From: Iphione sp. A-MEVVRFRX5
Lineage: Eukaryota
Direction of reading: 5' to 3'
DNA: 64,000 bases
Assembly (NCBI GenBank): GCA_976226885.1
Contig: OZ320316.1
Span: 77,004,001-77,068,000, forward strand
Positions 3,001-58,442 of the stretch are shown piece after piece. Below the pieces are notes generated by a model. That model did not search any database, was not told the origin of the DNA, and saw only the letters and a list, made by a program, of their open reading frames with translations. Positions within the stretch are counted from its first letter, which is position 1; each line of letters starts with the position of its first letter. Position numbers and translations under genes: made by a program.

Positions 3001-6000
3001 GTGGAACCACAATTTTCTCGCGAAGATTGGCTTTCATGTCTGTCTTCTCCTTTTTCTCTTTTATAGTCTTAGTCAGTCGGCGGACACCTTCAGCGGCAGC
3101 CATCCCGGCCAAGACTGGAGCCCCGACAACTGCCAGGAGTCCCAATTTGGCAGCATCTTTTGCATTGATGCGTCGGCCTGAGGTTGGGTCCTTGTAATCA
3201 GCAGTATTTGCATCGATTAGACCTCGTTGCTTGGCCTCATCAATGGAAACCCGTTTTTTCATTACTGGGTCATACACTGTTGGTGCATCAGGGTCGATCT
3301 TTCCTTCTTTAATGGCCTGAGGCAATGGAATCTTGACACCTCGCTGCCAATCCATCACATACTCTGAGTCTGCACTGACCGCTGATTCAACCAAGCCAGA
3401 ATTGACTGCATCCCTCAAAGAGAGAAGTTTCTTGTGTGCTTGTGTGTCGATAAAATCACCTGTCTGTCCATCTACAATTCCCTGCTGGATGGCTTGGTGC
3501 ATGGTCAACCTCTGGCCAGAGTTTGGACTGACAATGACTGTTGTTTCTGGATTGATCACTCTCTGGTCAATGGCTTCTTGCAGCGTCAGTTGTTGTTTGG
3601 TGTGGGGATGGAGAACCCGGGCTGTATCTAGATCTAACATGCCACTAAGGATGGCATCTTCAAAGTTAACAGGTGACATTCGGGCTTCATTTCTAATAAA
3701 CTGCGGATCTACAGTGATATCCAGTTCCTTCAATCTATTTTCATTTACAAGTCCACTGTAGCTACTGACAAGGTTTTTCACCAAAGCATCCTGTAGGGAG
3801 ACACTTCGTCCTGTCTTGATGTCGACAATAGCTGCAGCCTTGGGATCGAGACAGCCACGGTTGATAGCCTCGTGAATTGTCATATGCTTTCCTGAGTTTG
3901 GTTCGATGAACCGACCAGTCCGGATGTCATATAGACCCAGTTTTACAGCACTATCAAATGACAGTCCTTTTGTTTCTTCCTGATCGGCTGGGGTGGTATC
4001 CATCGCTTCTTCTACAATGATGGTCTTTACTTCTGGCTCCACCAACTTGGTTGTCTGGATAGTCAAGGTTACAGTGTCTTCTTTGCTGTCGTCCTGTACA
4101 GTGCGTGCGGTTTCTACCACTTTGCTGTCACCTTCTATTGTCCTGATTTCTTCCTTCAGTTTTATTTCATGAGGATCGTGTGGGCGTGTCAAGCCTCTGA
4201 AAGGCATGGTCTCTGCCTTACGACTCAGGAGGTCAGCTGTCAGCTGGTCAATGAATCCTTCACGTACTGCTTCATGAAGTGGGATTTTCTCTCCAGTTCG
4301 GCCATCACGGACACAACCATTGGACCAGTCTGTTACAACACGTGCCTGCTGTGGGACAAACTCTTCAATCAACGGTTCTGAGCTCAAAGACGACCGTTCG
4401 GGCCCAAAGCCACGCTGCTTGTCACTGCTACTTGGATTCACAAGGCCCAACGCCATAGCCTCATCTATGGGGATTGTTTTGTTGTCCTTCGGGTTGTAGA
4501 AGGTCGTCTTGTCTTTGCTCAGCAGTCCCAGTTGTGTTGCTTGTGTTACTGATATAACTAGACCAGAGATCGGGTTCAAAACAGATACAATCTCTCCTGG
4601 CATTCCTTCCTTTTGGGTAGCAACCACATCACTGCGGAAGTGTTCCTGGGCTGTTGCTGCGACCAGCTCACCGACAATCAGACCCCGGTTTAGAGCTTCT
4701 GAGATGGGGATGGTTTCCCGTGTTTGTGCATTGATGTAGACACCTTGCTCCTCGTTAACGATGCCACGTCCATGGGCCTCCTGCAAGGTTATAATCTCTC
4801 CCGTTGTAGCATCTTTCACACCTGTGATTTGGAATTTCTTCGTGACTTCTGTCAACTCCTCATGAGCCATCTCGTCCAAGGCATCCAAATCATCGTCAAT
4901 GTGAATGCTGGGAACTCGTTCTTCATCTTCATCAACTTCTGTTTCTTCTAAGCCTAGCTCGACTTTGACAAGCCCTTTGTCGATGGCATCACTGATGGAC
5001 ATTACCTCTCCTGTTGCTTTGTTGTAATACTCGCCCTTACTTTTATCAATGACTCCTAGTTGTATCGCTTCGCTTGATGGAATTTCCATTTTGGTTACTG
5101 GGTGAATCACTGACTTTATGGTGTAGGTAGTGCTTCGAGAAGCAAGAATCCTGCTTTCAGCCATACTGTCAACAGGCTTTTGTGAACTGGATACAGTTGC
5201 CATAATCAGACCTTTTGAAATGGCATCCGTTACCATCATTTTATCACCGGTGACAGTGTTGACATACTGACCCTCACTCTGGTTCAGTATACCCCTTTTA
5301 ATGGCCTCAGTGACGGAGATCTGTTGTTTAGTGTTAGGGTCCATAACACTATGGATTTTGCAGGTTTGTGTCTCCTGTATGTACCGTGGACCCTTTGCCA
5401 TTGGTGAGGTGGTTATAGTACTGGTGGTAGCTATGACCAGTCCACGTTTGATGGCCTCTGAGATAGGAATTTGCTGCCGACGGCCATGAGCGTCACGGCC
5501 ATTATACCGCCCGTTGGCTTGATCAATTACCCCCTTCTTGAGAGCCTCAGCCACATCAATCATTTCACCCGTGGTGGGATCAATGGCGCCAGTGATGGTG
5601 AAGCTCTGGGTTTCCTTGATACCCATCAAACCGGCGGAAATGCCACTGTCATCAGGTTCTGCTTGAATGTATCCTGCTTCAATCGCCTCATTGATTGTCA
5701 ACACATCTGCTGAGGTCGGGTGTGTATAGGACCCACGTGCCTGGTCAAGAAGATGACGTCTGCTCGCACGATCAGGGTCGAGCCATTCGCCAGTGCGTGG
5801 ATCTAGCACCGATTTTATTATCATTCTTTTAACTTCAGCAATGTGTGGCACTTCCTTGGACTTATCCTTGTAGATGATGATGTGTGTCTTCAAGAGATCA
5901 TCCATAGTTTGGGGGACTTTTGTCCGTGGGTCAGTGAAGCGTCCCGTTGCATCAAGTAGCATTTTTTCTAGGGCTTCTTTCAATGGAAACTCTTTCTTGC

Positions 6001-8587
6001 TAATGGGATGTATGAAGTGGGCTATCTCTACATCAAGCAATTCACGATCAACGGCTTGCTCCAATGGCATTTCTTGGCCATTGGTAGGGTCGACGAAAAC
6101 ACCCGTCGCTGTAGCAAGCAGTTTCATAGCAATAGCTGTTCTCAGTGGAATGGGGAAGGTCACATCACCAGAGAATTCACTTTGTGCTGTTGTGCGAAGT
6201 TGGGACAATTTTGCTTCTTGTGTCGAGATGGCTTCAATGCCTTCCTCCGTACGGCGAGTATGGAAGTCCCGCCGCTCTGACCAGTGTACGTCTTCCTTTC
6301 CACCTTCAATATCACGAACATACTGATCAGACTCTTGCATTGTGACACGATCCTCAGGAACGATGGCTTCCAAGTCGGTCTGGCCTACGGGTACCATCGT
6401 GCCTCCCCTCATGTCACTTGGTATGGAACTCATAGTTGACAGGGTTTCTGAGTCCCATTCAGAAGCTGAGGAGAGGAGTAAGCCTCGTTGGACAGCCTCG
6501 CTCAGTAGCATGGTGTGGCCTGTTGCTGGGTCGCGGAAAGTACCCTGCTCCTCATTGACAATGCCCTGCCGCACCGCCTCAGCCACTGAGATGGCACGCG
6601 GTGGCTTGTCTTGAGCTTCTGACGGTTTAATCTGCGTCATGATCGTCTTGGTGGCCATAACTGCACTTGTAAGCCTCATGAGACGTTGTGCATCTCCAGG
6701 CTGCAGCAGTCCACAATCAACTGCTTCTTCTAGGGTCATTGAGCGGCCCGTTGTTGGATGTTTGACCTGGCCAGAGGACGGATCTAACAGGCCCCGTTTC
6801 AGAGCTTCCATTACACTGAGGTGACTACCAACAATATCTGTGAGACCTGAGTCACTCGAGAGCTGCTCTGCCAGCTCCGGGTCCACAAAGCCTCGTCGAA
6901 CAGCTTCCTCTAGTGACATCCTTCGTCCAGTTGTGTGATCAACGTAGGTTGCTGAGCCTGGATCGAAATAGCCTCGACTAATTGCCTCAGCCAAGTTGAG
7001 CGATTCATCAGTCACTGCATCACGGATTCCACGCTGAGCAAAGGTCACATCCTGGCTAAAGATCTGTGCCAGACCTTCATTGATAGCACCATGAAGGCTC
7101 AATCGCCGGCCACTCTTTGGGTCAACAAACTCGCCAGATGGGCTCACCAGTCCATAGGTGATTGCCTCTTGAAGGGAAAGCAGATCATTAGACCGTGGAT
7201 CAAGGATACACTTGAAGTCAAGATCAAGGATACCTTTCTCCAGAGCCTGCTGAAGTGTAAGTTTCCGGCCAGTATTCTGGTCTTTGATGACACCACCAGC
7301 ATCCATAATACCCTCTGTCAATGCTGTGTGTAGCGACATTGGCTGCTGGATGAGACCTCGTTGTTGGGCCTCATTCAGACCCATCGGACGTGTGGTGCGC
7401 AGGTCCACAAATACTCCAGTGTAGGGATTGATAATACCTTGATCAATGGCTTCTTGAACAGTGAGTTTTTCGCCTGTCACTGGGTGCAGCACCTCACGTA
7501 TACGTGGGTCGATGATTCCCCGATCTACAGCTTCCTGAAGGGTCACCTTCTCCCGCGATACAGGCTCGTAGAAGTGGCCACTACCAGGTATGTAGAGTCC
7601 TTTCTTCAGAGCGTCGGCCAGTGATAATGACACTGGAGCTGTGTCCATGTTGGGAACCCCGTAATATGCTTCTGACTGCGATGTGGATGAAGTGCGAATG
7701 CTGACATAGGAGAGAGTTTGCAGTGCCTCCTGAGAGATCACATGTCTTGCAGCAGCCTCCTCCAGGGTCATTACTCTTCCAGAACGGGGATCAGTTACCT
7801 GGCCTGAGAGGGGGTCATACCAGCCACGCTGCATGGTCTCCAGGATAGTGAGCTCTCGGCCAGTGGATGGATCTATCAGGCCACACTTGTGATGCAAGTG
7901 ACGGACCAGGTCCTTGTCTACATAGTTGAGCTTTGCTGCTTCAGATAGCGACATGGTGCGGCCCGTGCGTGGGTCTGAGAAGAGACCGGTTGTCACATCG
8001 AGCAGGCCGCTCTCGATGGCCTGTTCAAGGGACATCTTCCGGCCAGTCTTCGGGTTGAGTACGGCTGACACAAATACCACCTGGCCACGAGGTACTGTGG
8101 ACGTGGAGGAAACAGTTATCACAGACTGTACGGAATGGGGCAGAGTGACAGTCTCATCACGTGCGTCCTTTCCTTTACTGACCACTGAAATGCTAGTGAT
8201 GTTTGGCTGAACCTTGGGTGGTGCCATGGCTGAAGGTCCCTTCTTGGAGGGTACACTTGACACAGTGATGGTTTTGAAAGTCTCTATTGGTACGGCAGGC
8301 GTCTTCAGCCTAGCCTCCTGCTCTAGACTGTGCTGAGAGCTGCTCTTAGAGATCTGTACAATGCGGGCCCCACTTTGTACCTCACTGCTTGGAGTTACAG
8401 GGGCTGAGCTGCTAGTCGTCTTGGCTAGTATTACGCGACTCTGGAAGCTTGAAGACGGACTGAGAACTGGCCCATCTGTTGGGGACTTCAGCTGGATTCC
8501 AGCCCAGTCAATCTGGTCATCATCATCCAACATCCGCAATTCCGAACGGAATGTACGGATGCGAGGTATCACATCTTCCACTGCATA
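1..8587 (-). CDS. shot/MACF1/DST: Giant spectraplakin exon encoding plectin (plakin) repeats, truncated by the window edge (at least 2862 codons)
   Basis: Acceptor ttgttttcag|TAT GCA. The same frame reads plectin-repeat text near the start (VLNPKTGRKMSLEQAIESGLLD) and at the window edge (LSREEAIDRGIIDANTG). The ORF track reports no stop-terminated ORF in this frame, consistent with an open frame to position 1. Confidence 0.92.
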
Positions 8588-8866
8588 CTGAAAACAAGGA
8601 ATTCAGGTTGAAAATGACATACCTTTCTTAAATAGTTTAAGAAAGAGAGACCTTAAATAATGCTCATCCCGTCAAAATTTCTTCCAATAGTGTTACCAGG
8701 CAATATTTTCACGAAAATCAGTAGGTCCTACTACTGGTGGAAGTTGTAGTGTTGGACGTATAATTGGACCTTTTACAAGTGATATCTGACTTGTTTGCAT
8801 CAGAAGGAACTCTAGTAGGTTGACATACCAATCTAGGAGTCGAAGAAACAGTGAAATGACAATTAC

Positions 8867-28781: not shown

Positions 28782-29367
28782 TGTAGGCTAAAGCCTAGGT
28801 TTAGTTACACTGCTAGTAGCAGGGGTCATTGAGTGCAGAACTTGGGGTCAATGAGTGCAACTTCTGATGCCACTGTCATGTACCATCTGAGGTCAATGAG
28901 TGCATTCTGGTGACCTCATGGAAATTTCCACTACTGTGTTAATGTGATGTGATTGGTTGATGGACTAGTGGAAATTTCCACTACTAAGGTGTGATTCTCT
29001 GATTGGCTGGTGGGAGATCACCCCACCTGCCCATATTAGGTAATAGAGTTATGATTGGTCACTGAGAGATCACCCCATATTTCCTAATATGGGGGGAGCT
29101 CTCTGATTGGTGGAAAACATTCTATAACTTGTTACTTTGTATCTTTTATAAGGAAAAGTGTACTGATTGGCTAGAAACATTCTTTCTGACATGATACATT
29201 GTTACAATTAATGGAACTACATTCTGATTGGTTAATCGGTGAGGCTAGGCCTCTGATTGGTGGAATGACACTCAGAAGGGATATATAAACGGTGGTTTTG
29301 GAAGGAAATAAACAGTTTGGAACCAGCAATTGTGGTGTTCACAGCAACTTTATTGGTCCACTTTACA
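28782..29367 (+). repeat. 5' LTR (586 bp)
   Basis: No difference from 39708-40293 by eye; TATATAAA at 29282, AATAAA at 29307, seven GATTGG (inverted CCAAT) boxes. Confidence 0.97.
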
Positions 29368-29368
29368 C

Positions 29369-29386
29369 TGGTGGCAGCGGTGGGAT
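29369..29386 (+). promoter_or_regulatory. Primer-binding site complementary to the tRNA-Leu 3' end
   Basis: TGGTGGCAGCGGTGGGAT is the reverse complement of ATCCCACCGCTGCCA+CCA, the 3' end of animal tRNA-Leu (AAG type) as I recall it; starts 1 nt after the LTR. Confidence 0.9.
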
Positions 29387-29392
29387 AGGATA

Positions 29393-30253
29393 ATGGCCCG
29401 CAAGATAGTGGACGTTGACGAGGAAGTACAGCTGAGAATGCCACGGGGAGTGGAGGAAGAAGAAGAGGCACCGGAGCCATTTGTGTTAGCTCCTGAAGAG
29501 CCCCTGAAGCTGAACAGTCTCAAGCCTGAGCGTTTTGACGGTCGCACTGATGATTGGGAGAGTTGGCTGTTGCAGTTCGAGGAGTGGGCAGGTGCCTGCA
29601 ATTGGTCGGAAGGGCAGAAGTCGGCGGCACTCACGCTACTACTCTCAGGAAGTGCTCGCGCATTTTACGGCGACTTGTCCAGGGAAGAGCGAGAGACGTA
29701 TGGGGCCAAAGTGAACGCTCTACAGGCCAGATTCGGCCGAGGCCGGAACCGCATCATGGCGATGCAGGACCTTTCCAGTGCCAAGCGCCACAAGGGAGAG
29801 GACGTACGGGCCTACGCCGACAAAGTTAAAAGGTTGGTGAGGAACGCGTATGAAGATGCGGGACGCGAAACCAGGGAGCTGGCTACCGTCTCAACGTTCC
29901 AACGGGGCCTGACAGAAGATCTGCATCTCAAGTGCCTCGAGGCCAAGTGCGAGACACTAGAACAGGCGATACAGGTTGTAGAAGTGCAAGAGAAGTTTCA
30001 GACAAGACGGGTACATGCAGTACAAGCAACCAAGGATCCCCAGCTGACGTGGAAGCAGGAGATGCAAGACCTGCTGTCGAAACAGATGGAGCAACTCCGG
30101 ACGGAATTGAAGAATGACGGGGAAGCTAGAAGAAATCGCCGCAAGCTCCTCACCTGCTTCGAGTGCAAAGAGATAGGACATATCCGCAGGGAGTGCCCAC
30201 TCCTCACCAAGGCGAAGCAGTCGGAAAACGACCAGCGGTCACTCCCACAGTAA
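29393..30253 (+). CDS. gag: Gag (286 aa) with a single CCHC zinc knuckle
   Basis: KPERFDG...WESWLLQFE retrotransposon-gag N-terminus; CFECKEIGHIRREC. The ATG at 29393 follows the primer site; the ORF-track start at 29330 lies inside the LTR. Confidence 0.95.
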   Translation: MARKIVDVDEEVQLRMPRGVEEEEEAPEPFVLAPEEPLKLNSLKPERFDGRTDDWESWLLQFEEWAGACNWSEGQKSAALTLLLSGSARAFYGDLSREERETYGAKVNALQARFGRGRNRIMAMQDLSSAKRHKGEDVRAYADKVKRLVRNAYEDAGRETRELATVSTFQRGLTEDLHLKCLEAKCETLEQAIQVVEVQEKFQTRRVHAVQATKDPQLTWKQEMQDLLSKQMEQLRTELKNDGEARRNRRKLLTCFECKEIGHIRRECPLLTKAKQSENDQRSLPQ

Positions 30254-33200
30254 GGCAGGGGGAGATGACCGCGTTGCCGGAATCGGGGACACTGGTAGAG
30301 GCAGGCCAGGGATTGTATCTGAAGGTAAGCGCATTTGAACAGAGCTTCCTTTTGCTGGTAGATACAGGGGCCGAAGTTTCTATCATTAACCCCCGGTTTG
30401 TCCCTGACCTGCCTCATACCATGTTACCATCCCGGATAGTGGGAGCAGGGGGTCATACTATTCCTACTTTTGGGAAGAGAATGGTCCGAGTTCGGATAGG
30501 AGCTAAGGATTTTGATCACGAATTTGTGTTAGCAGAGATTGATGGTGATGGGATCTTAGGCAATGATTTCCTAGGGGAACATAAAGCAATCCTAGATGTA
30601 GCAGAGAGGAAAGTTATGATGTATAATCAGACCTTCGGTTGTAACAGGGTCATCCGTCAGGGAGACAGGTGTTTGAAGGTTGTGTCTGATGTAGAAATTC
30701 CCGCGGGAAAGGGGTGCCTCATCCCAATTGTTAACCCAGGCGGTACCACGCTGCTGGTGGAAGGAGTCCATGAAGATCAAGTGGAAAAGGGGATTGTGAG
30801 CGTTCGATGTGTGGTTGACACAAGTCTCCCGGTGTGGAATCCAGGGTCAGACACCGTGCTGGTCAAGGGAGGGACACCAATAGCCCTGGGGACTGCAGTG
30901 CCGTCAGAGGGCCTCCCAACTGAGACACAAGCAAGAGTCAACCGTGTGAGGGCACTCTCCCCAGTCGAACAGGAGTTAGTCGAAGGACTGACGGAGGGAG
31001 CGAAGTCGCAGCTGAGCGAGGGGGAACAAGCTAAACTTAAGGCACTGTTGAAGAACTTCATACATGTGTTTGCTAGAGATAAGTTCGACCTGGGGCGGAC
31101 GGGAGTCACGCAACATCGAATCTATACGGACACTGACCATCCGATCAAACAAGCCCCCCGTCGGTTACCCCTAGCAAAGAGGCAGGAAGAGCGAAAGTTA
31201 GTGCAGGAGATGCAAGAACTCGGGGTCATCCGGGAAAGCAGGAGCCCCTGGTCAAGTCCCATCGTTATGGTAAAGAAGAAGGATGGCTCAACGCGCTTCT
31301 GTGTTGACTACCGTAAACTCAACCAGAGAACCAAGATTGATGCCTACCCTTTGCCCCGCATCGACGACTCACTTGGGACGTTGGCTGGAGCCAAGTTCTT
31401 CTGCTCCCTGGACCTCGCCTCCGGGTACTGGCAGGTGAAGATGCACCCTGAAGATGCAGAGAAGACCGCCTTCTCGACGTCATTGGGCCTGTACGAGTTC
31501 ACGGTCATGCCCTTCGGCCTAGTGAACGCCCCCGCAACCTTTGAGAGATTGATGGACACCATCCTGCGGGGCCTCACGTGGGACCAGTGCCTGGTATATT
31601 TGGACGATATCCTCGTTTTCGGTCAAGATTTTGAGCAAACACTAGGCAGACTTGAGGCTGTCCTGTCCAGATTCGAATCGGCCGGGTTGAAGTTAAAGCC
31701 CTCGAAGTGCAAGTTGTTCCTAACAGAAATCGACTTCTTAGGGCATCGCATTTCACAAGATGGCATCGCCACAGACCCGGGGAAGATCAAGAGCATCGCC
31801 GACTGGCCGACGCCAACCTGTACGACGGGGATACGCGCTTTCTTGGGCATTTGCTCCTACTACCGAAGGTACGTCCCAGATTTCGCCACCATTGCGAGTC
31901 CACTTAATCAACTCACCGGGAACAGGTCGACTTTCCGCTGGACCGAAGAGCAACAGGAGGCTTTCAAACGGTTGAAGAAGGCACTGATGTCCAGCCCCAT
32001 TCTCGGTTTCCCCATGCCAGAAGGAGAGTACACCCTGGATACAGACGCCAGTGACGTAGGACTAGGAGCGGTTCTGTCTCAACAACAAGAGGACCGAGAG
32101 GTGGTGATCGGGTATTTCAGCCGCAGCCTGAGCCCGGCTGAACGCAAGTACTGCGTCATGCGACGAGAGCTGTTAGCGGTGGTGACCAGTCTCAAACACT
32201 TCCACTTCTACCTATATGGACGAGCAGTGACAATTAGGACAGACAACGGTGCAGTCAGCTGGGTAAATCGCATTCGGGACCCAGAGGGGCAACTTGCACG
32301 CTGGATCGAACGCATCCAACAGTACCAGACGAAGTTTGTACATCGAGCCGGAAGATCTAACGGGAATGCAGATGCCCTGTCCCGACAGGAATGCAAGCAA
32401 TGCCACCAGGAACACCTTCTGGAGGAGGACCAGTCCAGCCGGGTCGCGGTCATCACCCGAAGCCAGACTCAAGACACCGATCACCGGGAGCTGCGACTAC
32501 AACAACTAGCGGACCCTGACATTGGCCCAATTCTCAAACTTCGAGAGGCCCAGACAACTCAACCGCCTTGGGAAGAAGTATCTCCTTCCTCTGCGGCAGC
32601 AAAAAGCCTGTGGCGACAATGGAATAGGCTCGAAGTGATTGATGGGATACTCCACCGACGCTGGATCGGAATTGGGGCCGATTACTCCCGAGTTCAAGTC
32701 GTGCTGCCGACCTCGAAGCGGACAGAAGTCATCCGGGCCGTCCACGGCGGGAAAGCGGGAAGCCACTTGGGATGTGATCGGACGACTTTCCTGGTGGGAC
32801 TAGCGTACTATTGGCCGGATATGAAGGGAGACGTCCGGGAAGTCTGTCAGTCATGCCACTGTGCCCTGCTAAACAAGACAGCCCTTGCCCCTCAGGCAGG
32901 GCTAACCTCTTACATAGTAGGAGAACCTATGGAGAGATGGTCTATGGACGTAGCTGGCCCATTCCCCATTACCCAACGGGGGAATAAGTACGTCTTGATG
33001 ATCGGTGACCACTTCTCCAAATGGTTAGAGGCTTTCCCGATGCCGGATCAGAAAGCCGAACGGGTGGCAAGGCTGATTCTGGAAGAAGTAATCGTTAGAT
33101 ATGGCTGTTTCCGCGAACTGCATAGTGACCAGGGGACGAATTTCTGCAGCGAAGTAATTCACTCCCTCTGCGAGCTGATGGAGATCAAGAAAACACGCAC

Positions 33201-33867
33201 CACGCCGATGCACCCTCAGGGAGACGGTTTCGTAGAAAGAAGTTTCCGCACTCTTGGACGCATGCTGAAGGCCTACCTCTACGAACACGAGGCCGAATGG
33301 GACGAGGCACTCCCGTATTTGATGATGGCCTACCGAGCGTCCCCACAAGCCAGCACAGGATTCTCTCCAAACTTCTTGATGTTTGGCCGGGAGATCACGT
33401 TGCCACTACACGTGATGGATGGGGTCCCCAGCCGAGACCCGGACTCGGATCACCCGCTGGAGGTGGCAGTGAACAGAACTCATCATCGAATGCAGCAGGC
33501 CTTCAAGAAAGCCAGGGAGAACCTAAAGTGCGCGGCAAAGACACAGGCGCATCAATACGACAAGAGAGTACGACAAGAAGAAATACATCCAGGGTCGGTA
33601 GTATGGCTCCACCATGCACAACCGCCACGGGGGAAGGCTCCAAAGCTCCACTTTCCTTGGCGAGGTCCCTGCCTTGTGACGCAAGTGCTGGACTCGGGAC
33701 GAGCAGTTGTGCAGCAGTCGTGCTCATCTCCAGGGAAGGTAGTCCACAGGAATCGCCTACTGCCATTTAAAGACAAACGACTGCCCCCATGGATTACGCG
33801 CTGGAAGAAGATCAACGAGAAGAGCACGCCGCGACGGGATGAGGTACCCCCAACCCAAGAGGTATAA
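30163..33867 (+). CDS. pol: Pol polyprotein (protease, reverse transcriptase, RNase H, integrase), in the -1 frame relative to gag
   Basis: LLVDTGA protease; LDLASGYWQ, MPFGLVNAP and YLDD in RT; TDASDVGLG in RNase H; integrase D-D-E (MDVAGP, HSDQG, VER) and a GPY/F-like WRGPC motif; uninterrupted frame. Confidence 0.98.
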   Translation: MQRDRTYPQGVPTPHQGEAVGKRPAVTPTVRQGEMTALPESGTLVEAGQGLYLKVSAFEQSFLLLVDTGAEVSIINPRFVPDLPHTMLPSRIVGAGGHTIPTFGKRMVRVRIGAKDFDHEFVLAEIDGDGILGNDFLGEHKAILDVAERKVMMYNQTFGCNRVIRQGDRCLKVVSDVEIPAGKGCLIPIVNPGGTTLLVEGVHEDQVEKGIVSVRCVVDTSLPVWNPGSDTVLVKGGTPIALGTAVPSEGLPTETQARVNRVRALSPVEQELVEGLTEGAKSQLSEGEQAKLKALLKNFIHVFARDKFDLGRTGVTQHRIYTDTDHPIKQAPRRLPLAKRQEERKLVQEMQELGVIRESRSPWSSPIVMVKKKDGSTRFCVDYRKLNQRTKIDAYPLPRIDDSLGTLAGAKFFCSLDLASGYWQVKMHPEDAEKTAFSTSLGLYEFTVMPFGLVNAPATFERLMDTILRGLTWDQCLVYLDDILVFGQDFEQTLGRLEAVLSRFESAGLKLKPSKCKLFLTEIDFLGHRISQDGIATDPGKIKSIADWPTPTCTTGIRAFLGICSYYRRYVPDFATIASPLNQLTGNRSTFRWTEEQQEAFKRLKKALMSSPILGFPMPEGEYTLDTDASDVGLGAVLSQQQEDREVVIGYFSRSLSPAERKYCVMRRELLAVVTSLKHFHFYLYGRAVTIRTDNGAVSWVNRIRDPEGQLARWIERIQQYQTKFVHRAGRSNGNADALSRQECKQCHQEHLLEEDQSSRVAVITRSQTQDTDHRELRLQQLADPDIGPILKLREAQTTQPPWEEVSPSSAAAKSLWRQWNRLEVIDGILHRRWIGIGADYSRVQVVLPTSKRTEVIRAVHGGKAGSHLGCDRTTFLVGLAYYWPDMKGDVREVCQSCHCALLNKTALAPQAGLTSYIVGEPMERWSMDVAGPFPITQRGNKYVLMIGDHFSKWLEAFPMPDQKAERVARLILEEVIVRYGCFRELHSDQGTNFCSEVIHSLCELMEIKKTRTTPMHPQGDGFVERSFRTLGRMLKAYLYEHEAEWDEALPYLMMAYRASPQASTGFSPNFLMFGREITLPLHVMDGVPSRDPDSDHPLEVAVNRTHHRMQQAFKKARENLKCAAKTQAHQYDKRVRQEEIHPGSVVWLHHAQPPRGKAPKLHFPWRGPCLVTQVLDSGRAVVQQSCSSPGKVVHRNRLLPFKDKRLPPWITRWKKINEKSTPRRDEVPPTQEV
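30223..30278 (+). promoter_or_regulatory. Predicted -1 ribosomal frameshift signal (G_GAA_AAC plus hairpin or pseudoknot)
   Basis: Heptamer is in the gag frame at 30223-30229; 5-nt spacer; stem GCGGTCACTCCC (30235-30246) pairs with GGGAG-a-TGACCGC (30260-30272); loop GGCA can pair with TGCC (30275-30278). Confidence 0.75.
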
Positions 33868-34140
33868 CTTTCCGGTTTTGGTGATGGATTGGGGACAGGT
33901 TCCCGCTGGAGTATCTTAGCATCCCGAAAAGTCGTACAGCAGGGTAAGGGACAGGTGCCCTGGAGCGTCTCAGCGTCTCGAAAGTCCCACTAGTTATTCC
34001 TTAGTTCCTCTATTGGCCTTTGCAGTTGGCGAGGTCCCCACATTTCCGTTTGGCCAGGGCAAGAGAGATCCCCCTGGAGCGTCTAGCGTCTCGAAAACCC
34101 TCTGGTTAGACTTTAGTTCCTTGTGTTCTAAGAGTTCTTT

Positions 34141-34794
34141 GTCAGGGAAGGAAGATGGTTCCCCTGGAGCGTCTCAGCGTCTCAAAAGTCTTCGGTCAGG
34201 GAAGGAAGATGGTTCCCCTGGAGCGTCTCAGCGTCTCAAAAGTCTTCGGGTCAGGGAAGGAAGATGGTTCCCCTGGAGCGTCTCAGCGTCTCAAAAGTCT
34301 TCGGTCAGGGAAGGAAGATGGTTCCCCTGGAGCGTCTCAGCGTCTCAAAAGTCTTCGGGTCAGGGAAGGAAGATGGTTCCCCTGGAGCGTCTCAGCGTCT
34401 CAAAAGTCTTCGGGTCAGGGAAGGAAGATGGTTCCCCTGGAGCGTCTCAGCGTCTCAAAAGTCTTCGGTCAGGGAAGGAAGATGGTTCCCCTGGAGCGTC
34501 TCAGCGTCTCAAAAGTCTTCGGGTCAGGGAAGGAAGATGGTTCCCCTGGAGCGTCTCAGCGTCTCAAAAGTCTTCGGTCAGGGAAGGAAGATGGTTCCCC
34601 TGGAGCGTCTCAGCGTCTCAAAAGTCTTCGGGTCAGGGAAGGAAGATGGTTCCCCTGGAGCGTCTCAGCGTCTCAAAAGTCTTCGGGTCAGGGAAGGAAG
34701 ATGGTTCCCCTGGAGCGTCTCAGCGTCTCAAAAGTCTTCGGTCAGGGAAGGAAGATGGTTCCCCTGGAGCGTTTCAGCGTCTCAAAAGTCTTCG
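34141..34794 (+). repeat. Tandem array of 12 x 54/55-bp units inside the retrotransposon
   Basis: Unit gtcagggaaggaagatggttcccctggagcgtctcagcgtctcaaaagtcttcg(g); unit lengths 54,55,54,55,55,54,55,54,55,55,54,54; flanked by a duplicated ~150-bp block and diverged units (about 33890-35050). Confidence 0.97.
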
Positions 34795-35381
34795 AAGTTA
34801 TTCCTTGGTTCCTCTATTGGCCTCTGCAGTTGGCGAGGTCCCCACATTTCCGTTTGGCCAGGGCAAGAGAGATCCCCCCTGGAGCGTCTAGCGTCTCGAA
34901 AACTCTCTGGTTAGATTTTAGTTTCTTGCGTTCTAAGAGTTCTTTGTCAGGGAAGGAAGATGGTTCCCCTGGAGCGTCTCAGCGTCTCAAAAGTCTTCGG
35001 TCAGGGTAAGGGACAGGTGCCCTAGAGCGTCTCAGCGTCTCAAAGTCCCACTAATTATTGGTTCCCCCAGACCTACCCCGAATCTTTCCATTAGCGATAT
35101 GGAAGGGAGCCCCATTCTAGGTCCGACACCAAAAAGGGGGGGGGGCTCCACCGCATGATATCTCAGGGGCCCAGTAGCATGAGTAGAATCAGTCGGGGTG
35201 GGGACCGTCTGCCGCGCTACCAACCAACGGACGGGTCGCCAACCTCGACTATCTACGCCTCGACGGAGAGAGACATCGGCACTGGGCTGCCGGTGAGCGA
35301 CCAAGTCAAGTCTGCAGATCCGGGCACTATGACCGCCAGCGGCTGCGGCTGGGCAGGACCACGATCCCAGGCGACACGACC

Positions 35382-35532
35382 GTCGTCCGCTGCATAGGAG
35401 GAAGATGTCCCAGATGATACGACCATCATCTGCTGCACCTACCTTGTCGGGTTGCCGACTGCTGTCGTCCGCTGCATAGGAGGAAGATGTCCCAGATGAT
35501 ACGACCATCATCTGCTGCACCTACCTTGTCGG
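35382..35532 (+). repeat. 69-bp direct repeat, two copies (35382-35450, 35464-35532)
   Basis: Identical copies with period 82. Confidence 0.9.
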
Positions 35533-35931
35533 AGAAAGTGGAGACAACACTACCACGCGTTAATCCCCAGAGTGGTGACTGTTACTTACCTGTGATGAAT
35601 TTGGATTGAGGACGATGATCCTAGCGAGAAGACGGGGGGACCACGGTCCCTATCGCCCCTGCGGACTGTTCCAGGCATCCGGGTGATTGCAGAGACACTT
35701 ACCATCCTCAAACGGCACGACCACCACACTTCTCAAGCCCAAGACAACAACAGATACAGGTATGTGACAGTGGCATCAATATGGGTAAAGGACGGGGTTG
35801 CTACTATTTGGCACTCGGCAGTTAGTGTGAGTCTCTAGATGGGGAGACCCCTATGTGAAGAGTTACCGACATGTGAACGTGAAAATAGAAAAAGCCAGTA
35901 AGACACAAGTGCAGGACAAGTGGATTTTTTT

Positions 35932-35937
35932 TTTATT
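35932..35937 (-). terminator. Poly(A) signal of the antisense gene
   Basis: AATAAA on the minus strand about 20 nt after the TAA stop (35957-35959), followed by a U/GU-rich tract (cttgtcctgcacttgtgtcttactggctttttctattttc). Confidence 0.7.
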
Positions 35938-35956
35938 TAGATGAAGAGTATGACGC

Positions 35957-36635
35957 TTATTCCTCGTCGGATGATATGCAAATAGGCCAGAAGCCGGTGT
36001 CGCCGGGGACTAGCCCCGTGCACCACCGCTCCATGGCGGGAATGTCCAATCCGGGTGGCAGAATGGGGGAGCGGCTGGGGGTGTCCTGGGCGGATGTGGA
36101 TGAAACACTGGGCGAGGCCGGAGTAGAGGGGATGCTCTCTTCGTCTGTTGAGCGCTCGGATGTGCCGGGGGAAGCGACGGAGGCGGTGAGAGTGCCGGGA
36201 ACGAGGGGGTCCTCCCCCTGGCTCCCCCCGACCCCGCTGTCATCGGAGGTGAGACCGGGGTCAAGTATACTGGTGGCCATGCTTCCGTACTCCCACTCGT
36301 CGTCGTTGCTGGGATGATCCTCGGCCTCCCCGGCGGCGGCCAAGAGGGCGTCCACGACACGGGGGGATGGTGGCGCATCATCCCGCGGCCAGATCACAGT
36401 GGCCGGGGCAGCGTCCCGCGGCCATACGACGGTGGCCGGCTGTTGCGGGTCGCTAGCAAGCAGCCCCGCAATGATATCGTCGCTCCGGCGCACGGTCAGG
36501 TCGATGGTATAGTTGGGACCGTAGAGCGCCAGATGCCCCGGGACATCTAGGTAGAAAGGGGCCTCCGGGGCTGCCCGCACCCCTGCAACCCGCACCCGCG
36601 GGCCGGGGGTGTAAATATCCACGTATGGGACGCCC
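35957..36635 (-). CDS. Antisense accessory gene, last coding exon (acidic, Pro/Ser-rich)
   Basis: Acceptor ctcatttcccttcctag|G GGC GTC CCA TAC GTG is in frame with the 221-aa ORF, which ends ...WPICISSDEE*. Confidence 0.75.
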
Positions 36636-36760
36636 CTAGGAAGGGAAATGAGACGAGGATGTCAGGGGGGAACAGCCATAATTAGGACAGGTGGGTTAGC
36701 ACAATGATAGAGACAAAGATGCAAACGGGATAAAGAAGCTGTAGAGAGGGGAATACTTAC

Positions 36761-36823
36761 GGGAATCCCTCATCGGGGACCGGGATGAGTCCACCTGGCT
36801 GGGGTACCCAGGGATCTCCATAC
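36761..36823 (-). CDS. Antisense accessory gene, internal exon (63 nt)
   Basis: Acceptor cctatctcccttcctag, donor gtaagt; YGDPWVPQPGGLIPVPDEGF; phases match both neighbours. Confidence 0.72.
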
Positions 36824-36947
36824 CTAGGAAGGGAGATAGGGATGGCATTTAGCTGCTGGTGATGAGGGAGGTGTTCAAATGAGGACTCAGAAATTCATGG
36901 AACTAGTCAGGAAATCACTAGGAAATGGACATAGATGGGACGCTTAC

Positions 36948-37007
36948 CGGGGGTCAGTGGGCGCGTAACCACCAAAAATAGGATCGGCATAAGCAGGCAG
37001 GGGGAAC
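36948..37007 (-). CDS. Antisense accessory gene, internal exon (60 nt)
   Basis: Acceptor cttattttccttctcag, donor gtaagc; FPLPAYADPIFGGYAPTDP; no stop; phases match. Confidence 0.7.
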
Positions 37008-37137
37008 CTGAGAAGGAAAATAAGCACTGACCTATAGTGAGATAAGTTACCTGGTAATGAAGACAAGGGAAATTACAGGGAGGCCTTTTTTTTATCAGAC
37101 ATTGACTATGGAGAATGGTAACCCCTCCCCACACACG

Positions 37138-37148
<11 letters not shown>

Positions 37149-37199
<51 letters not shown>
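37149..37199 (+). repeat. A51 homopolymer inside the retrotransposon
   Basis: Read directly; preceded by (CA)n. The length may be a sequencing artefact. Confidence 0.9.
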
Positions 37200-37201
<2 letters not shown>

Positions 37202-37336
37202 TGGGGTGAGTGGATATGTATCTCAGAAACCCATTTAGCAACCCTACCAGACCCTCTAGCCTGGATGTACATTTGTCATTGAGATGAGCTGACCACACAC
37301 ATATTTAGAAAATTTGTCAAAATTGGCCCTACTTAC

Positions 37337-37435
37337 ATGTCAATGGATGGGCGAAACTTTCAAAATTCGGGTGACAGGCTCTCCAAACTTTGGGGAGGCA
37401 GGCCGGGCCGGCGGCGGGGGAGCGATGGAGATCGA
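37337..37435 (-). other. Antisense accessory gene, upstream exon (mostly 5' UTR; ends in AT, completing ATG on splicing)
   Basis: Acceptor ccactccag, donor gtaagt; exon end ...GACAT joined to the next exon's G TTC CCC gives ATG. A further gtgagt donor lies at 37490. Confidence 0.5.
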
Positions 37436-38009
37436 CTGGAGTGGCGGCGAGCCGGATAACAAGGAGCGAGCGACGACAACAGCTACTCACAGCGACTTTC
37501 GGGCTCAGAATGATGAAAAATTCGCGGTGACGACATCAAACTTCGTGATATGACGTTGCTGGCACGAGGTTGAGATGGAGACAGCCCGAAAAGATCGAAA
37601 GGAACAGTTTGAATGGGTTTTCGTTCCACGATGACGCACGGTGGAACGGAGCCCGAAATGAGCCCGAAATTTTACGACACTCCATATTTGGGAACGTCGT
37701 TTGCGACATCTGTACCCACCTGCAGCAGCGTTTTCGGGGAAGAACGAGCCGGCGGGAACAGCACCCAAAGAGCGAGGAAAAGGTTGTTCGACCCGAAATT
37801 TGGTGGGGAGCGACCCGAAGTTGGAAGGTCGAGGCCACGGGAGCAACGGGTCGGTGAGGACGGACGATTACGAGAAACATTTGGTGGGGAGCGACCCGAA
37901 GTTGGAAGGCCGAGACCACGGGAGCAGCGAGTCGGCGAGGACGGACGACTACGAGAAAGATTTCAACCGGCCCGAAACTGGTGAGAAACGACCCGAAGTT
38001 GGAGTGAAC
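37340..38009. promoter_or_regulatory. CpG-rich, putatively bidirectional internal promoter region
   Basis: Lies between the divergent antisense gene and ORF3; 11 CCCGAA/TTCGGG hexamers in about 630 bp; 81-bp tandem duplication (about 37800-37960). Confidence 0.45.
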
Positions 38010-39494
38010 ATGTCTCGTCGGCTACTGGACCCGGATGAACCCATCCCAGAAGGCAAGATATTGTGCCCACCGTGTTTAGTGAGGGGACTTAGACGGGTGT
38101 GTTCTGGGAAGAAGGGTCTCAGGCGTCATCTGTTGGAGCAACACAGGGGGAAACGCAGAAAACCTATGGCATGCCTGTTCTGCCGGTCCTCCCACTGTGA
38201 CAACCATTCGTGGCTGACCCACACTCGTCGACACCATCAGTGGGCAGTCGAGTTGCACCTCACGGATGAACCATACCGTTCACTGTTTCATCTAGTGTAC
38301 AGGGAGAGAGTAGAGGCAGATGCTCCAGACGATCAGGTAGCGCGGGCAATCATAGCGGCACGAGAATATTGGAAGAGAAGACAGAAGGTTACCAAGGAGA
38401 TGATGATCCGCCTACTGAGAGAAGCTGAAGAGTCCCTGAGAGATGACCAGGCGAGGGCACCACCGCCTGGGAGAGAGCCCGAGACATTGCCGGCACCTAC
38501 CGGTCCAGTTGCCAGGTCTCAGTCTACTGGCTCACCGACATCCCCTGTACCAGCTGTGGGTCCCACTGGGGCTCGTAAGTTCAAGTCAACCAAGGCAAGG
38601 GGACCAGCGGCTGTGAAAAGCGAGACTGCGACAACAGCCCCCGGGCAGCCAACACCGTCTACATCAACTGCAGGCTCCTCTGCCACCCAGGGATTTAGGC
38701 CCCTCGAACCGAAGGGATCGCCAGCCACGAAGCACGGGGCCGTGGCAACGCCTGCTCCACTGACCCAGACCCCCATAAAGGTTGATAGTGCCAGGACGAC
38801 CTCCCCCGGTCGCAAGAGGACCAGGGTGGCCTTACAGACCGCCACGGGCGAACGGGCTCTTCCCGACAACACGACAGCACGACAACAGGTCCCAGCCGAG
38901 GGACAGCCAGCTACGTTTGTCCCCGAGGAAGACTCGATCATCAGCATGCTGAGGGGGGAGATGACCGGCGACGATCCGAGAAGAGAGAGGGCGAGGGCCC
39001 TACTGGACGGAAGAATTCCCCCATATCGGGCGGCGATGCGTGAGCGGCCCACATCCTCCACTATACGCCTTCCCCAGCGAATCATCTGGCCTCCAAGGGA
39101 CTGGGACCAGGCCGATGGGGGCTCACGATTCCTGTGTAGCCTCAGCGTGGCATGGACCCTACACATGGCCGAGGACAGAGTGATGCCAACAGACAGGCTG
39201 GGACCCCTCCGGGACAGACCATTCCTCTTGCTGCCAGGCATGTCTTACCCCACGGATGACCTGTGGGGCGATCCCGCATCACTGGGGACAGAGCACGATG
39301 ACATTATCCAGCAGGTACAAGGGTTGCTTAGGACAGGAGACCGGCCACCAGCGTCGACGGTTACATTGTGGGATGCCCAGGCCGACGAAGCGAGACGACA
39401 CCTCACCAGGGTGAACCCCGCCGTGCTGGACCTTTGCCGAACAGGCCCCCCTCTCTCCCGCCCCCTCACCTTGAGAGATTACTGGGCACTGTAG
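38010..39494 (+). CDS. Accessory ORF3 (494 aa from the first ATG): two C2H2-type zinc fingers, low-complexity linker, C-terminal domain of unknown type
   Basis: CPPC-X17-H-X4-H and canonical CLFC-X12-H-X3-H (38064-38237); basic clusters RGKRRKP and PGRKRTR; no signal peptide or TM segment; frame open back to a TTG at 37701. Confidence 0.85.
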   Translation: MSRRLLDPDEPIPEGKILCPPCLVRGLRRVCSGKKGLRRHLLEQHRGKRRKPMACLFCRSSHCDNHSWLTHTRRHHQWAVELHLTDEPYRSLFHLVYRERVEADAPDDQVARAIIAAREYWKRRQKVTKEMMIRLLREAEESLRDDQARAPPPGREPETLPAPTGPVARSQSTGSPTSPVPAVGPTGARKFKSTKARGPAAVKSETATTAPGQPTPSTSTAGSSATQGFRPLEPKGSPATKHGAVATPAPLTQTPIKVDSARTTSPGRKRTRVALQTATGERALPDNTTARQQVPAEGQPATFVPEEDSIISMLRGEMTGDDPRRERARALLDGRIPPYRAAMRERPTSSTIRLPQRIIWPPRDWDQADGGSRFLCSLSVAWTLHMAEDRVMPTDRLGPLRDRPFLLLPGMSYPTDDLWGDPASLGTEHDDIIQQVQGLLRTGDRPPASTVTLWDAQADEARRHLTRVNPAVLDLCRTGPPLSRPLTLRDYWAL

Positions 39495-39694
39495 ACGCCT
39501 ATTATACAAGTTTAGCTAGTTTTAAGTTAGTTAGGTGGACTGTTTGAATCGTTAACAAGGTTATTGAAAACGGAAGGAGATTATTTGGTACTAGGACTTT
39601 TTCTCTTGGAAAACAATGCTGGAGCTCCGCGAGGGAAAGACACCATAAGGGGGTGAGTACAGATCTTTTTTTTTGTGAGCCCATGCCTGGGATT

Positions 39695-39707
39695 AAGCAG
39701 GGGAGAG
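39695..39707 (+). promoter_or_regulatory. Polypurine tract
   Basis: AAGCAGGGGAGAG immediately before the TG of the 3' LTR. Confidence 0.92.
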
Positions 39708-40293
39708 TGTAGGCTAAAGCCTAGGTTTAGTTACACTGCTAGTAGCAGGGGTCATTGAGTGCAGAACTTGGGGTCAATGAGTGCAACTTCTGATGCCACT
39801 GTCATGTACCATCTGAGGTCAATGAGTGCATTCTGGTGACCTCATGGAAATTTCCACTACTGTGTTAATGTGATGTGATTGGTTGATGGACTAGTGGAAA
39901 TTTCCACTACTAAGGTGTGATTCTCTGATTGGCTGGTGGGAGATCACCCCACCTGCCCATATTAGGTAATAGAGTTATGATTGGTCACTGAGAGATCACC
40001 CCATATTTCCTAATATGGGGGGAGCTCTCTGATTGGTGGAAAACATTCTATAACTTGTTACTTTGTATCTTTTATAAGGAAAAGTGTACTGATTGGCTAG
40101 AAACATTCTTTCTGACATGATACATTGTTACAATTAATGGAACTACATTCTGATTGGTTAATCGGTGAGGCTAGGCCTCTGATTGGTGGAATGACACTCA
40201 GAAGGGATATATAAACGGTGGTTTTGGAAGGAAATAAACAGTTTGGAACCAGCAATTGTGGTGTTCACAGCAACTTTATTGGTCCACTTTACA
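39708..40293 (+). repeat. 3' LTR (586 bp)
   Basis: No difference from the 5' LTR by eye; followed by ATAT. Confidence 0.97.
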
Positions 40294-57680: not shown

Positions 57681-58442
57681 AGTGGGGGCTCTTAGGGCCT
57701 GAAATGGCCAAACTCGTTACGGAGTGGATAAAAGCGCCATTTTTTGTATATAGATCTAATTTTTTAATTTTTGAAGTTAAGTCATAATTTCTTGAGTACT
57801 GGATCTTTACTATTCTCTGGTAGGAATATTTCATAATTTAAATGAAAAACACTATATCAATCTGTTACACTTGATTCATCAGTAAAGAAGAACTGAGACC
57901 CTCAGCAGCAGAATTTGACCAAATTTGGAAATAACATGTCTGATTAGAATTGAAGAAAGGGGGACAAAGAATTATCATAAACTTCTGGAAAAACCATCAA
58001 AATGAAGCTTAAGACTTCTATTTTCATATAAGCTGTGATATAAACTAGAATAGTTCTTTACAGTTGTTTCCATGGAAACAATATAAGGTCAAATCACTTT
58101 TTGTATGAAATTTTGAGGTCAAAGTTCAAATTTTAATGACCTTGACCTTGACCTAAACAAATAAAATTAGTGTATTTAGAACAATTATCTATAAATGTTT
58201 GTATATGAGAATTTATATCATAATATGATAATTAGTCTTTTACCAGGACCAATATTTATATGAAAATTTGATGTAATGAAAATTTTCAAAATTTTCAGAT
58301 ATAAATGGTTGCCATGGCAACCATGTTCAGCTTTCAAGATGTGGACCCTTCTAAAATGAAAATTTAAAGTCTTTTAGATCTATATACAAAAAATGGCGCT
58401 TTTATCCACTCCGTAACGAGTTTGACCCTAAGAGCCCCCACT
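57681..58442. mobile_element. Non-autonomous DNA transposon with ~60-70-bp terminal inverted repeats, apparently nested in a truncated TACAGTAGAACC-type MITE starting near 57590
   Basis: Left agtgggggctcttaggg...ttttttgtatatagatcta mirrors right tagatctatatacaaaaaa...ccctaagagcccccact; target duplication ambiguous (ATAGT 5 bp or TAG 3 bp). Confidence 0.75.

Follow-up and report, generated by a model that had tools for sequence, protein, structure and literature searches.

A Gypsy retrotransposon family of Iphione with two predicted accessory genes, an exchangeable zinc-finger-like cassette, and candidate family-specific motifs

The means by which transposons escape from or manage host silencing in animals are not settled; in print, we found one clear case of a family-specific factor encoded by the element itself, the plant protein VANC (PMC6719617; here and below, statements on published systems refer to the parts of the cited papers that we consulted). 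VANC, encoded by the VANDAL transposons of Arabidopsis, acts at motifs in VANDAL non-coding DNA, and both motif binding and demethylation have been shown (PMC5735166, PMC6719617). Foamy-virus Tas binds an internal promoter and the long terminal repeat (LTR) (PMC4929722, PMC8670036, PMC13220597). Among the Gypsy elements of plants and fungi, Grande, RIRE2, Retand, PvRetro13, and Boty (with its brtn) carry antisense extra open reading frames (ORFs) of unassigned function (PMC7264820), and in animals, bdelloid rotifer LTR elements carry lipase- or exonuclease-like extra ORFs (PMC5408684) and Cer1 encodes the Rev-like CERV (PMC10309623). Here, we analyzed a 64,000-nt stretch of the genome of Iphione sp. 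A-MEVVRFRX5 ("the window"), which at 28782-40293 holds a complete Ty3/Gypsy LTR retrotransposon of 11512 nt. Behind its pol gene, a predicted spliced antisense gene and a sense gene for a zinc-finger (ZF)-like protein diverge from a common intergenic region. HTLV-1 likewise has a spliced antisense accessory gene in its 3' half, driven from the 3' LTR and encoding the bZIP protein HBZ; the window gene differs in having no Pfam match, a first exon >2 kb from the LTR, and a promoter predicted to be internal. The analogy with HBZ drawn in an earlier annotation of this DNA (the original prediction) holds for position only.

In most copies of these plant and fungal elements, as in the window element, an antisense ORF is conserved behind pol and ahead of the 3' LTR, and Retand also has a tandem repeat (PMC7264820). 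The window element differs in being an animal element with three introns, a divergent sense gene, motifs, and allelic cassettes, and no homology between them was found. With the bdelloid elements and Cer1 it shares an animal LTR setting, non-env extra genes, and extra ORFs common to distant lineages, like the ZF gene; theirs are sense ORFs, and the parts of those papers at hand describe neither a divergent pair nor a motif code. It differs from env-carrying, errantivirus-like Gypsy elements in that its module lacks env, although a distant relative treated below (family X) does have a Baculo_F match. Already known, as far as these sources go, are antisense extra ORFs (plant and fungal Gypsy), non-env extra ORFs shared across lineages (rotifers), and a Rev-like ORF (Cer1); the present layout is not described in the consulted parts of a mollusc LTR survey (PMC6238403), an annelid survey (PMC8220671), a giant-element review (PMC6431247), or a plant transposon protein atlas (PMC13547354). 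We found no animal element in which divergent accessory genes go together with a motif code and allelic cassettes in the mostly open-access literature outside Repbase and Dfam, where the element families themselves may already be catalogued. New are the exchangeable ZF cassette, family-specific motifs that follow clades, and the presence of the ZF gene in a distant env-carrying Gypsy and in another organism. The original interpretation is partly supported, and what we regard as the main feature, the allelic swap cassette, was absent from it.

Two accessory genes behind pol

The post-pol module (33868-39707) comprises 5840 of the element's 11512 nt (51%), which bears out the prediction that half of the element lies between the pol stop and the polypurine tract (39695-39707, plus strand). 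Its contents also follow the predicted order: a tandem array, a spliced antisense gene with a poly(A) signal, a CpG-rich region, and a sense ORF (the splicing being read from sequence only). As proposed, neither accessory protein looks like env: Pfam and hydropathy searches of the ORFs revealed no signal peptide, membrane anchor, or fusion-protein domain, and the best 19-residue Kyte-Doolittle means of the two proteins, 0.65 and 0.77, mark no hydrophobic stretch.

Copies were sampled without bias toward the module by searching with integrase DNA, which gave 278 candidates, of which the best 40 (97-100% identical) were scored. Each of the 40 was followed by a ZF match in the same orientation (compared by hand), within ~4-6 kb of the integrase for 38 and at 7 kb and 15 kb for one each. 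The sense ZF protein searched against its own genome gave 155 matches among 87 scored candidates of 8767. Thirty further loci were retrieved by ZF match, and 28 of these were window-family copies with backbone. Nine of the 28 have lost reverse transcriptase (RT), RNase H (RH), and integrase (IN) through an internal deletion starting near 30700, and these deleted copies retain the array, the antisense gene, and the ZF gene between LTRs that are 98.5-100% identical. The post-pol module is a standard part of its Gypsy family. Two window-family copies at 17.277-17.299 Mb of G000:C22 (L077-L079) stand in tandem, with a common middle LTR and the same small pol insertion in both.

The antisense gene was modeled on the minus strand as four exons (37338-37337, 37007-36948, 36823-36761, and 36635-35957) encoding 267 aa, with all three introns in phase 2 and a predicted start codon finished by the first splice (AT|G). 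Exon 1 as a whole would span 37337-37440, with a tentatively placed 5' end, and a poly(A) signal (AATAAA, 35937-35932, minus strand) follows the gene in 28/29 copies. The alignment comprised 25 copies, the four with a second allele being left out. All six GT/AG splice sites were intact in 24 of the 25; exons 2 (60 nt) and 3 (63 nt) were of constant length in every copy, intron 1 ranged from 239 to 521 nt, and internal stops interrupted the ORF in 4. From these patterns we infer antisense splicing and accessory-gene expression. The ratio of nonsynonymous to synonymous change (dN/dS) against the window was 0.08-0.24 wherever amino-acid changes were present (21 of 24 pairwise comparisons), a conservation like that of pol (0.09-0.15), and the small exons were also constrained (0.19-0.36 in five diverged copies), all of which indicates that the antisense gene is under purifying selection. 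Its introns would be retained because the genomic RNA that is reverse transcribed is of the opposite strand. Intron 1 contains a T run that forms a 51-nt A run on the plus strand (37149-37199); a long run of this kind (A in genomic RNA) recurs in an antisense intron of the sister family F and of the loci L138 and L143, with pol only ~60% identical.

Exon 4 encodes a conserved domain of ~55 aa, predicted by eye to be beta-rich, followed by an acidic Pro/Ser-rich middle and a conserved C-terminal tip. The protein had no Pfam match, and the ESM Atlas gave no usable match for the domain. In four retrieved copies, a second allele, with a last exon 33% identical, replaces ~35895-37000.

Exchangeable cassette, motifs, and relatives

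The sense ORF (38010-39494, plus strand, 494 aa) stops 213 nt before the LTR and encodes a basic protein without a membrane stretch: two C2H2-like fingers and helices (to ~38441), a low-complexity linker, and a conserved C-terminal domain (38910-39485) with W-P-P and L-L-P-G motifs. The fingers were recognized by conserved Cys/His spacing and by weak C2H2 matches of relatives, all below the Pfam cut-off. For the window protein, a word-based search of 5.8 billion proteins gave no match. The C-terminal domain holds no conserved catalytic-looking residue set, and a PDB sequence search found nothing below E 1. It was modeled by AlphaFold at pLDDT 54 and 64, and searches of PDB, BFVD, and VIA-wide with the pLDDT 64 model were negative (best Z 4.1); a VANC/MAIN-like fold was likewise not recovered by Pfam or by a fold match of this low-confidence model. 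ESM Atlas leads for the domain to QRICH1 (25% of members), ALOG, and a phage integrase N-domain (scores 0.88-0.93, 85-147 shared features) gained no backing from fold searches and were not adopted.

This gene lies in an exchangeable cassette of ~1.9 kb, occupied in the window (37735-39645, plus strand, borders approximate) by allele A; the others are B, C, D, E, and probably G. The main alleles are 42-60% identical (among A-D, 50-59% in the finger domain and 45-56% in the C-terminal domain), and in copies with allele B, C, or D the gag and pol genes can match those of the window at 98-99.6% identity. The borders are sharp: DNA identity is 91-100% up to ~37700, 34-75% up to ~39650, and 94-100% beyond. 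Silent sites are saturated between alleles (pS 0.73-0.89), compared with pS 0.03-0.06 in pol for the same kinds of copy. Within alleles, dN/dS of the ZF domains was 0.10-0.23 in four diverged pairs (linker 0.35-0.58) and 0-0.46 in three close pairs having few changes, values indicating that the ZF gene, too, is under purifying selection. Among the best 40 of the 278 integrase copies there were 9 A, 17 B, 12 C, and 2 D, as assigned by identity class and frame length, with direct alignment for part only.

On the gag-protease (gag-PR) tree of 29 copies, the alleles require 11 changes, where the minimum would be 4. The gag-PR and RT trees disagree, so recombination appears to be general in the window family; the alleles stand out by their depth and their fixed borders, not by recombination itself. 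The two accessory genes are exchanged independently: ZF A, B, C, D, and E are all found beside antisense allele 1, and either antisense allele can accompany ZF D. Sister family F repeats the swap, with backbones 93-96% and cassettes 65-68% identical. The finger-2 helix is constant among the deep alleles, and finger 1 varies between them. That alleles so divergent are exchanged among nearly identical backbones points to selection acting over long times within a transposon family.

Between the two genes lies a CpG-rich region (37339-38009), predicted to contain the divergent promoter and the 5' leaders, in which CpG observed/expected is 1.3-1.5 (37400-38000) versus 0.7 in the flanks. It carries 11 sites of CCCGAA, mostly pointing outward, or 16 per kb versus 0.2 per kb in the flanks. 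With a duplication removed beforehand, CCCGAA was the top promoter 6-mer, its 10 copies comparing with at most 9 in 500 shuffles. It recurs within the unalignable private 5' part of each allele A-E, and its bases were 92.7% conserved versus 84.4% for their neighbors (10 diverged copies; sites defined on the window copy). Seven more sites fall in the array zone (33868-35060); the array, proposed originally as a repeated-motif target, does carry the motif, but secondarily, the promoter region being the main carrier.

The window family's motif is not palindromic; sister elements have dyads of their own. CTTGGG-n4-CCCAAG occurs in F, L141, and L144, with 8-12 copies per promoter region and 9-15 per tail/LTR, and was found 0 times in the promoter and tail/LTR of nine other elements tested. 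The exact F dyad has 958 sites in the genome versus 0 for a control, and 48 of the first 50 listed were clustered. CTGYGG-n2-CCRCAG occurs in L138 and L140 and CTACGG-n2-CCGTAG in L143, 7-10 times and in those three only. Every motif class was restricted to the non-coding DNA of its own clade in a 12-element cross-table, and the three motif classes coincide with three clades of the ZF tree. The finger-2 helix reads D-N-H/Y-S-W, D-E-Y-A-W, or D-E-H/Y-Y-W, constant within a motif class and different between classes. L148 has an antisense domain 77% identical yet no CCCGAA, so the motif tracks the ZF gene better than the antisense gene. Half-sites of four families align as CC-N-N-A-R and change along the element tree. 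All 15 dyads of the F LTR lie upstream of its TATA box (in U3), as do those of L140 and L143. In F and L143, a dyad stands just upstream of the antisense-gene TATA box, which has an initiator 31-33 nt on; this TATA-initiator pair was found in 7/10 sister loci and in none of the window family. Candidate proteins and candidate motifs thus form three matched sets in one genome, open to direct cross-binding comparison.

F and eleven further loci with pol 57-61% identical share the layout, in which pol is followed by short repeats, the antisense gene, the ZF gene, and the LTR; family-level ZF and integrase trees agree. The F LTR (1298 nt; G000:C1 68.84-68.85 Mb) consists of 120-nt repeat units that each hold two palindromic sites. 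Family X, with at least 150 loci, is a more distant 26.2-kb Gypsy (1.5-kb LTRs 98.7-99.5% identical; 1778-codon pol frame; G000:C10 ~63.003-63.030 Mb, L130, L118, L117, L119, L128). Its pol is ~30% identical to that of the window, and its extra region of ~13 kb holds several unassigned ORFs, among them a ZF homologue (29% identical in the C-terminal domain), plus a Baculo_F-type env; no antisense homologue was found in it. Nested in one family X copy, at ~75.829-75.841 Mb of G000:C11 (L112, L111), is a different Gypsy element that has an env-like ORF and whose 833-nt LTRs share 99.8% identity.

Beyond this genome, a profile search with the ZF protein gave 11 matches, of which 8 were dropped as repeat-protein noise and 3 were real. 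Together with follow-up searches, it yielded 11 proteins of other organisms with the same C-terminal domain, six of them with N-terminal C2H2-like fingers and three named from Dreissena polymorpha or Ruditapes philippinarum. The bivalve proteins P0013, P0014, and P0019, annotated as host genes (one named glycosyltransferase-like), share this domain and, judging from it, may be retrotransposon genes, which offers a likely identity for an unnamed family that bivalve annotations currently treat as host genes. One ZF homologue, on a JGI metagenome contig (L151), follows a Gypsy pol at a distance of ~790 nt and has no antisense partner; this pol is 43% identical to that of the window. Three other contigs with C-domain relatives had no pol within the stretch examined, and two single-protein queries of IMG/VR returned no relative.

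Candidate roles of the module

The reading that we favor, by a modest lean, is of a complex Gypsy element in which two accessory genes under selection diverge from a predicted internal promoter and whose ZF protein would bind the element's own motif as an activator or anti-silencer. Its fingers would read the short motif found repeatedly in the non-coding parts of the element, and the bound protein would switch on, or keep unsilenced, element transcription. The C-terminal domain might recruit host proteins or join subunits, and the antisense protein might be a second regulator or a counter-defence factor. The deep alleles would likely be kept by frequency-dependent selection and moved across backbones by recombination between copies; because they keep the same motif and finger-2 helix, they likely differ in surfaces facing host defence or partner proteins. 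More tentatively, the family may belong to an animal retrotransposon clade with its own motif-coded DNA-binding regulator from an undescribed protein family, held as old alleles under balancing selection in an exchangeable cassette that persists longer than its backbones, and similar bivalve "hypothetical proteins" may be members.

In its setting, this candidate regulator resembles VANC: in both systems an element-encoded accessory protein combines conserved domains with a variable region, and short family-specific motifs that differ between related families occupy non-coding regions and tandem repeats (PMC5735166, PMC6719617). The VANDALs are plant Mutator-like DNA transposons, unlike the Gypsy element of the window, and no sequence likeness was found; the window further differs in that its promoter CpGs decay normally, its alleles swap within one family, and its regulator is a predicted one. 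With foamy viruses and their Tas and Bet, the elements described here share a pair of accessory genes in the 3' half and, in the F and H clades, candidate sites at both promoter and LTR; an internal promoter, which foamy viruses have, is predicted here. Foamy viruses are vertebrate retroviruses with env in which tas and bet are both sense genes, no homology was found, and the window-family LTR has no sites.

Several observations weigh against an element-encoded activator or anti-silencer. The window protein itself has no Pfam match, C2H2 included; its designation as a zinc-finger protein comes from conserved Cys/His spacing and the weak matches of relatives. Five alleles share one motif, so a protein-motif arms race does not by itself account for the cassette. 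Because the motif is inherited along with the protein and only three clades were compared, their agreement can be plain kinship. CCCGAA is absent from the window family's LTR, unlike the Tas pattern; family X and L148 showed no clear motif, nor did the sequence upstream of the L151 homologue. Private CpG transitions were raised 3.2-fold in the promoter (20 copies; 5.4-fold in 16 B copies) and 4.6-fold in pol; given this like decay, copies seem to be methylated in the germ line throughout, with no lasting protection. The proposal of a self-encoded regulatory system gains support from the family-specific motifs that track the ZF clades, and its stricter form, anti-silencing in the sense of VANC, is so far unsupported, promoter CpG transitions being raised 3-5x as in the rest of the element; demethylation limited to one stage would leave no mark in such a count.

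Host factors could also bind the motifs in place of the ZF protein. That host transcription factors do so, with the accessory proteins serving other jobs such as blocking a restriction factor and the alleles being escape variants, we consider unlikely. The H-clade half-site resembles what we take to be a Runx site, some F dyads contain what we take to be kappaB-like cores, and the deep alleles and fast linker would fit host conflict; however, the CC-N-N-A-R half-sites shift along the element tree, which would call for a new host factor each time, and a basic two-finger protein is encoded beside the sites. The same motif evidence would serve a ZF protein that represses from these sites. It would then be a switch for self-limitation or immunity, comparable to a phage repressor on operators between two divergent genes, that holds copy number down, with alleles as compatibility types. 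The palindromes do flank the divergent promoter and adjoin the TATA box, and the four alleles in the integrase sample stand at intermediate numbers. This is nevertheless a rather improbable account: one motif common to the alleles leaves no immunity types at the DNA level, and the retention of the module between near-identical LTRs in copies lacking RT, RH, and IN fits a need or benefit in cis better than a brake.

A Rev- or CERV-like role, in which an accessory protein binds element RNA at motif hairpins or the array and exports unspliced genomic RNA, has a precedent among LTR retrotransposons in the CERV of Cer1 (PMC10309623). The F and H dyads could form stems with 4-nt loops, and the array sits behind pol and is kept in deleted copies. 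Export elements often sit behind pol. Against this quite improbable role, the array RNA folds worse than 200/200 shuffles (z +2.9), for which reason the array was rejected as an RNA structure; the window motif is non-palindromic, L138 dyad variants include, by eye, non-pairing mismatches, and sites are concentrated in U3 and at the antisense TATA box. Two small divergent genes with alternative alleles of both might also suggest a poison-antidote pair with allele-specific matching that makes the element addictive; the genes swap independently of one another, however, and neither protein showed an enzyme-like or toxin-like feature, so we hold this to be very improbable. Finally, captured host or foreign DNA in neutral drift would account for two proteins that match no known family or fold, yet this explanation is refuted to the point of having almost no weight left. 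The contrary outcomes named in the original prediction, disrupted or neutral ORFs and a one-off captured host fragment, are not what was found: dN/dS points to purifying selection on both ORFs, the module is in every close copy examined, including 40/40 of the best integrase copies, and together these argue against a one-off capture. The layout also recurs at 57-61% pol identity, and a homologue lies behind pol in another organism.

Other features of the element and the window

The window element is young: its LTRs (28782-29367 and 39708-40293, plus strand) are 586 nt each with zero differences and TG...CA ends. It is bordered by a 4-nt target duplication, as were 19/22 family copies having both ends located. 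The LTR has a TATA box (29282 in the 5' copy) and an AATAAA (29307), eight CCAAT-like boxes, and two sites that we take to be kappaB-like, which, like the CCAAT-like boxes, would suit binding by host factors; with only 2 CpG in 586 nt, it may escape methylation through scarcity of CpG. The primer-binding site (29369-29386, plus strand) is presumably of the tRNA-Leu type; ARAGORN gave no tRNA at the two matches of the primer-site pattern that were examined, and of 1404 genome-wide matches to the extended complement, the one read by eye was the primer site of another element. Then follow gag with a CCHC knuckle (29393-30253) and an open pol (30130-33867) in the order PR-RT-RH-IN, which overlaps gag in a different frame (both on the plus strand).

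In the module, the tandem array zone (33927-35044) has a core at 34141-34794 of ~12 units of 54/55 nt, the number of which differs between copies. Long ORFs across it were rejected as genes and are frame-shifting repeats instead. A 69-nt direct duplication lies at 35382-35532. Outside the element, a 2867-codon open frame on the minus strand (2-8602) has many plectin repeats, which mark the host as an animal, and is a plakin-family exon; terminal inverted repeats of 51 nt (23339-24012, containing a 41-nt tandem repeat) and 65 nt (57695-58438) bound two short elements that are probably MITEs (miniature inverted-repeat transposable elements).

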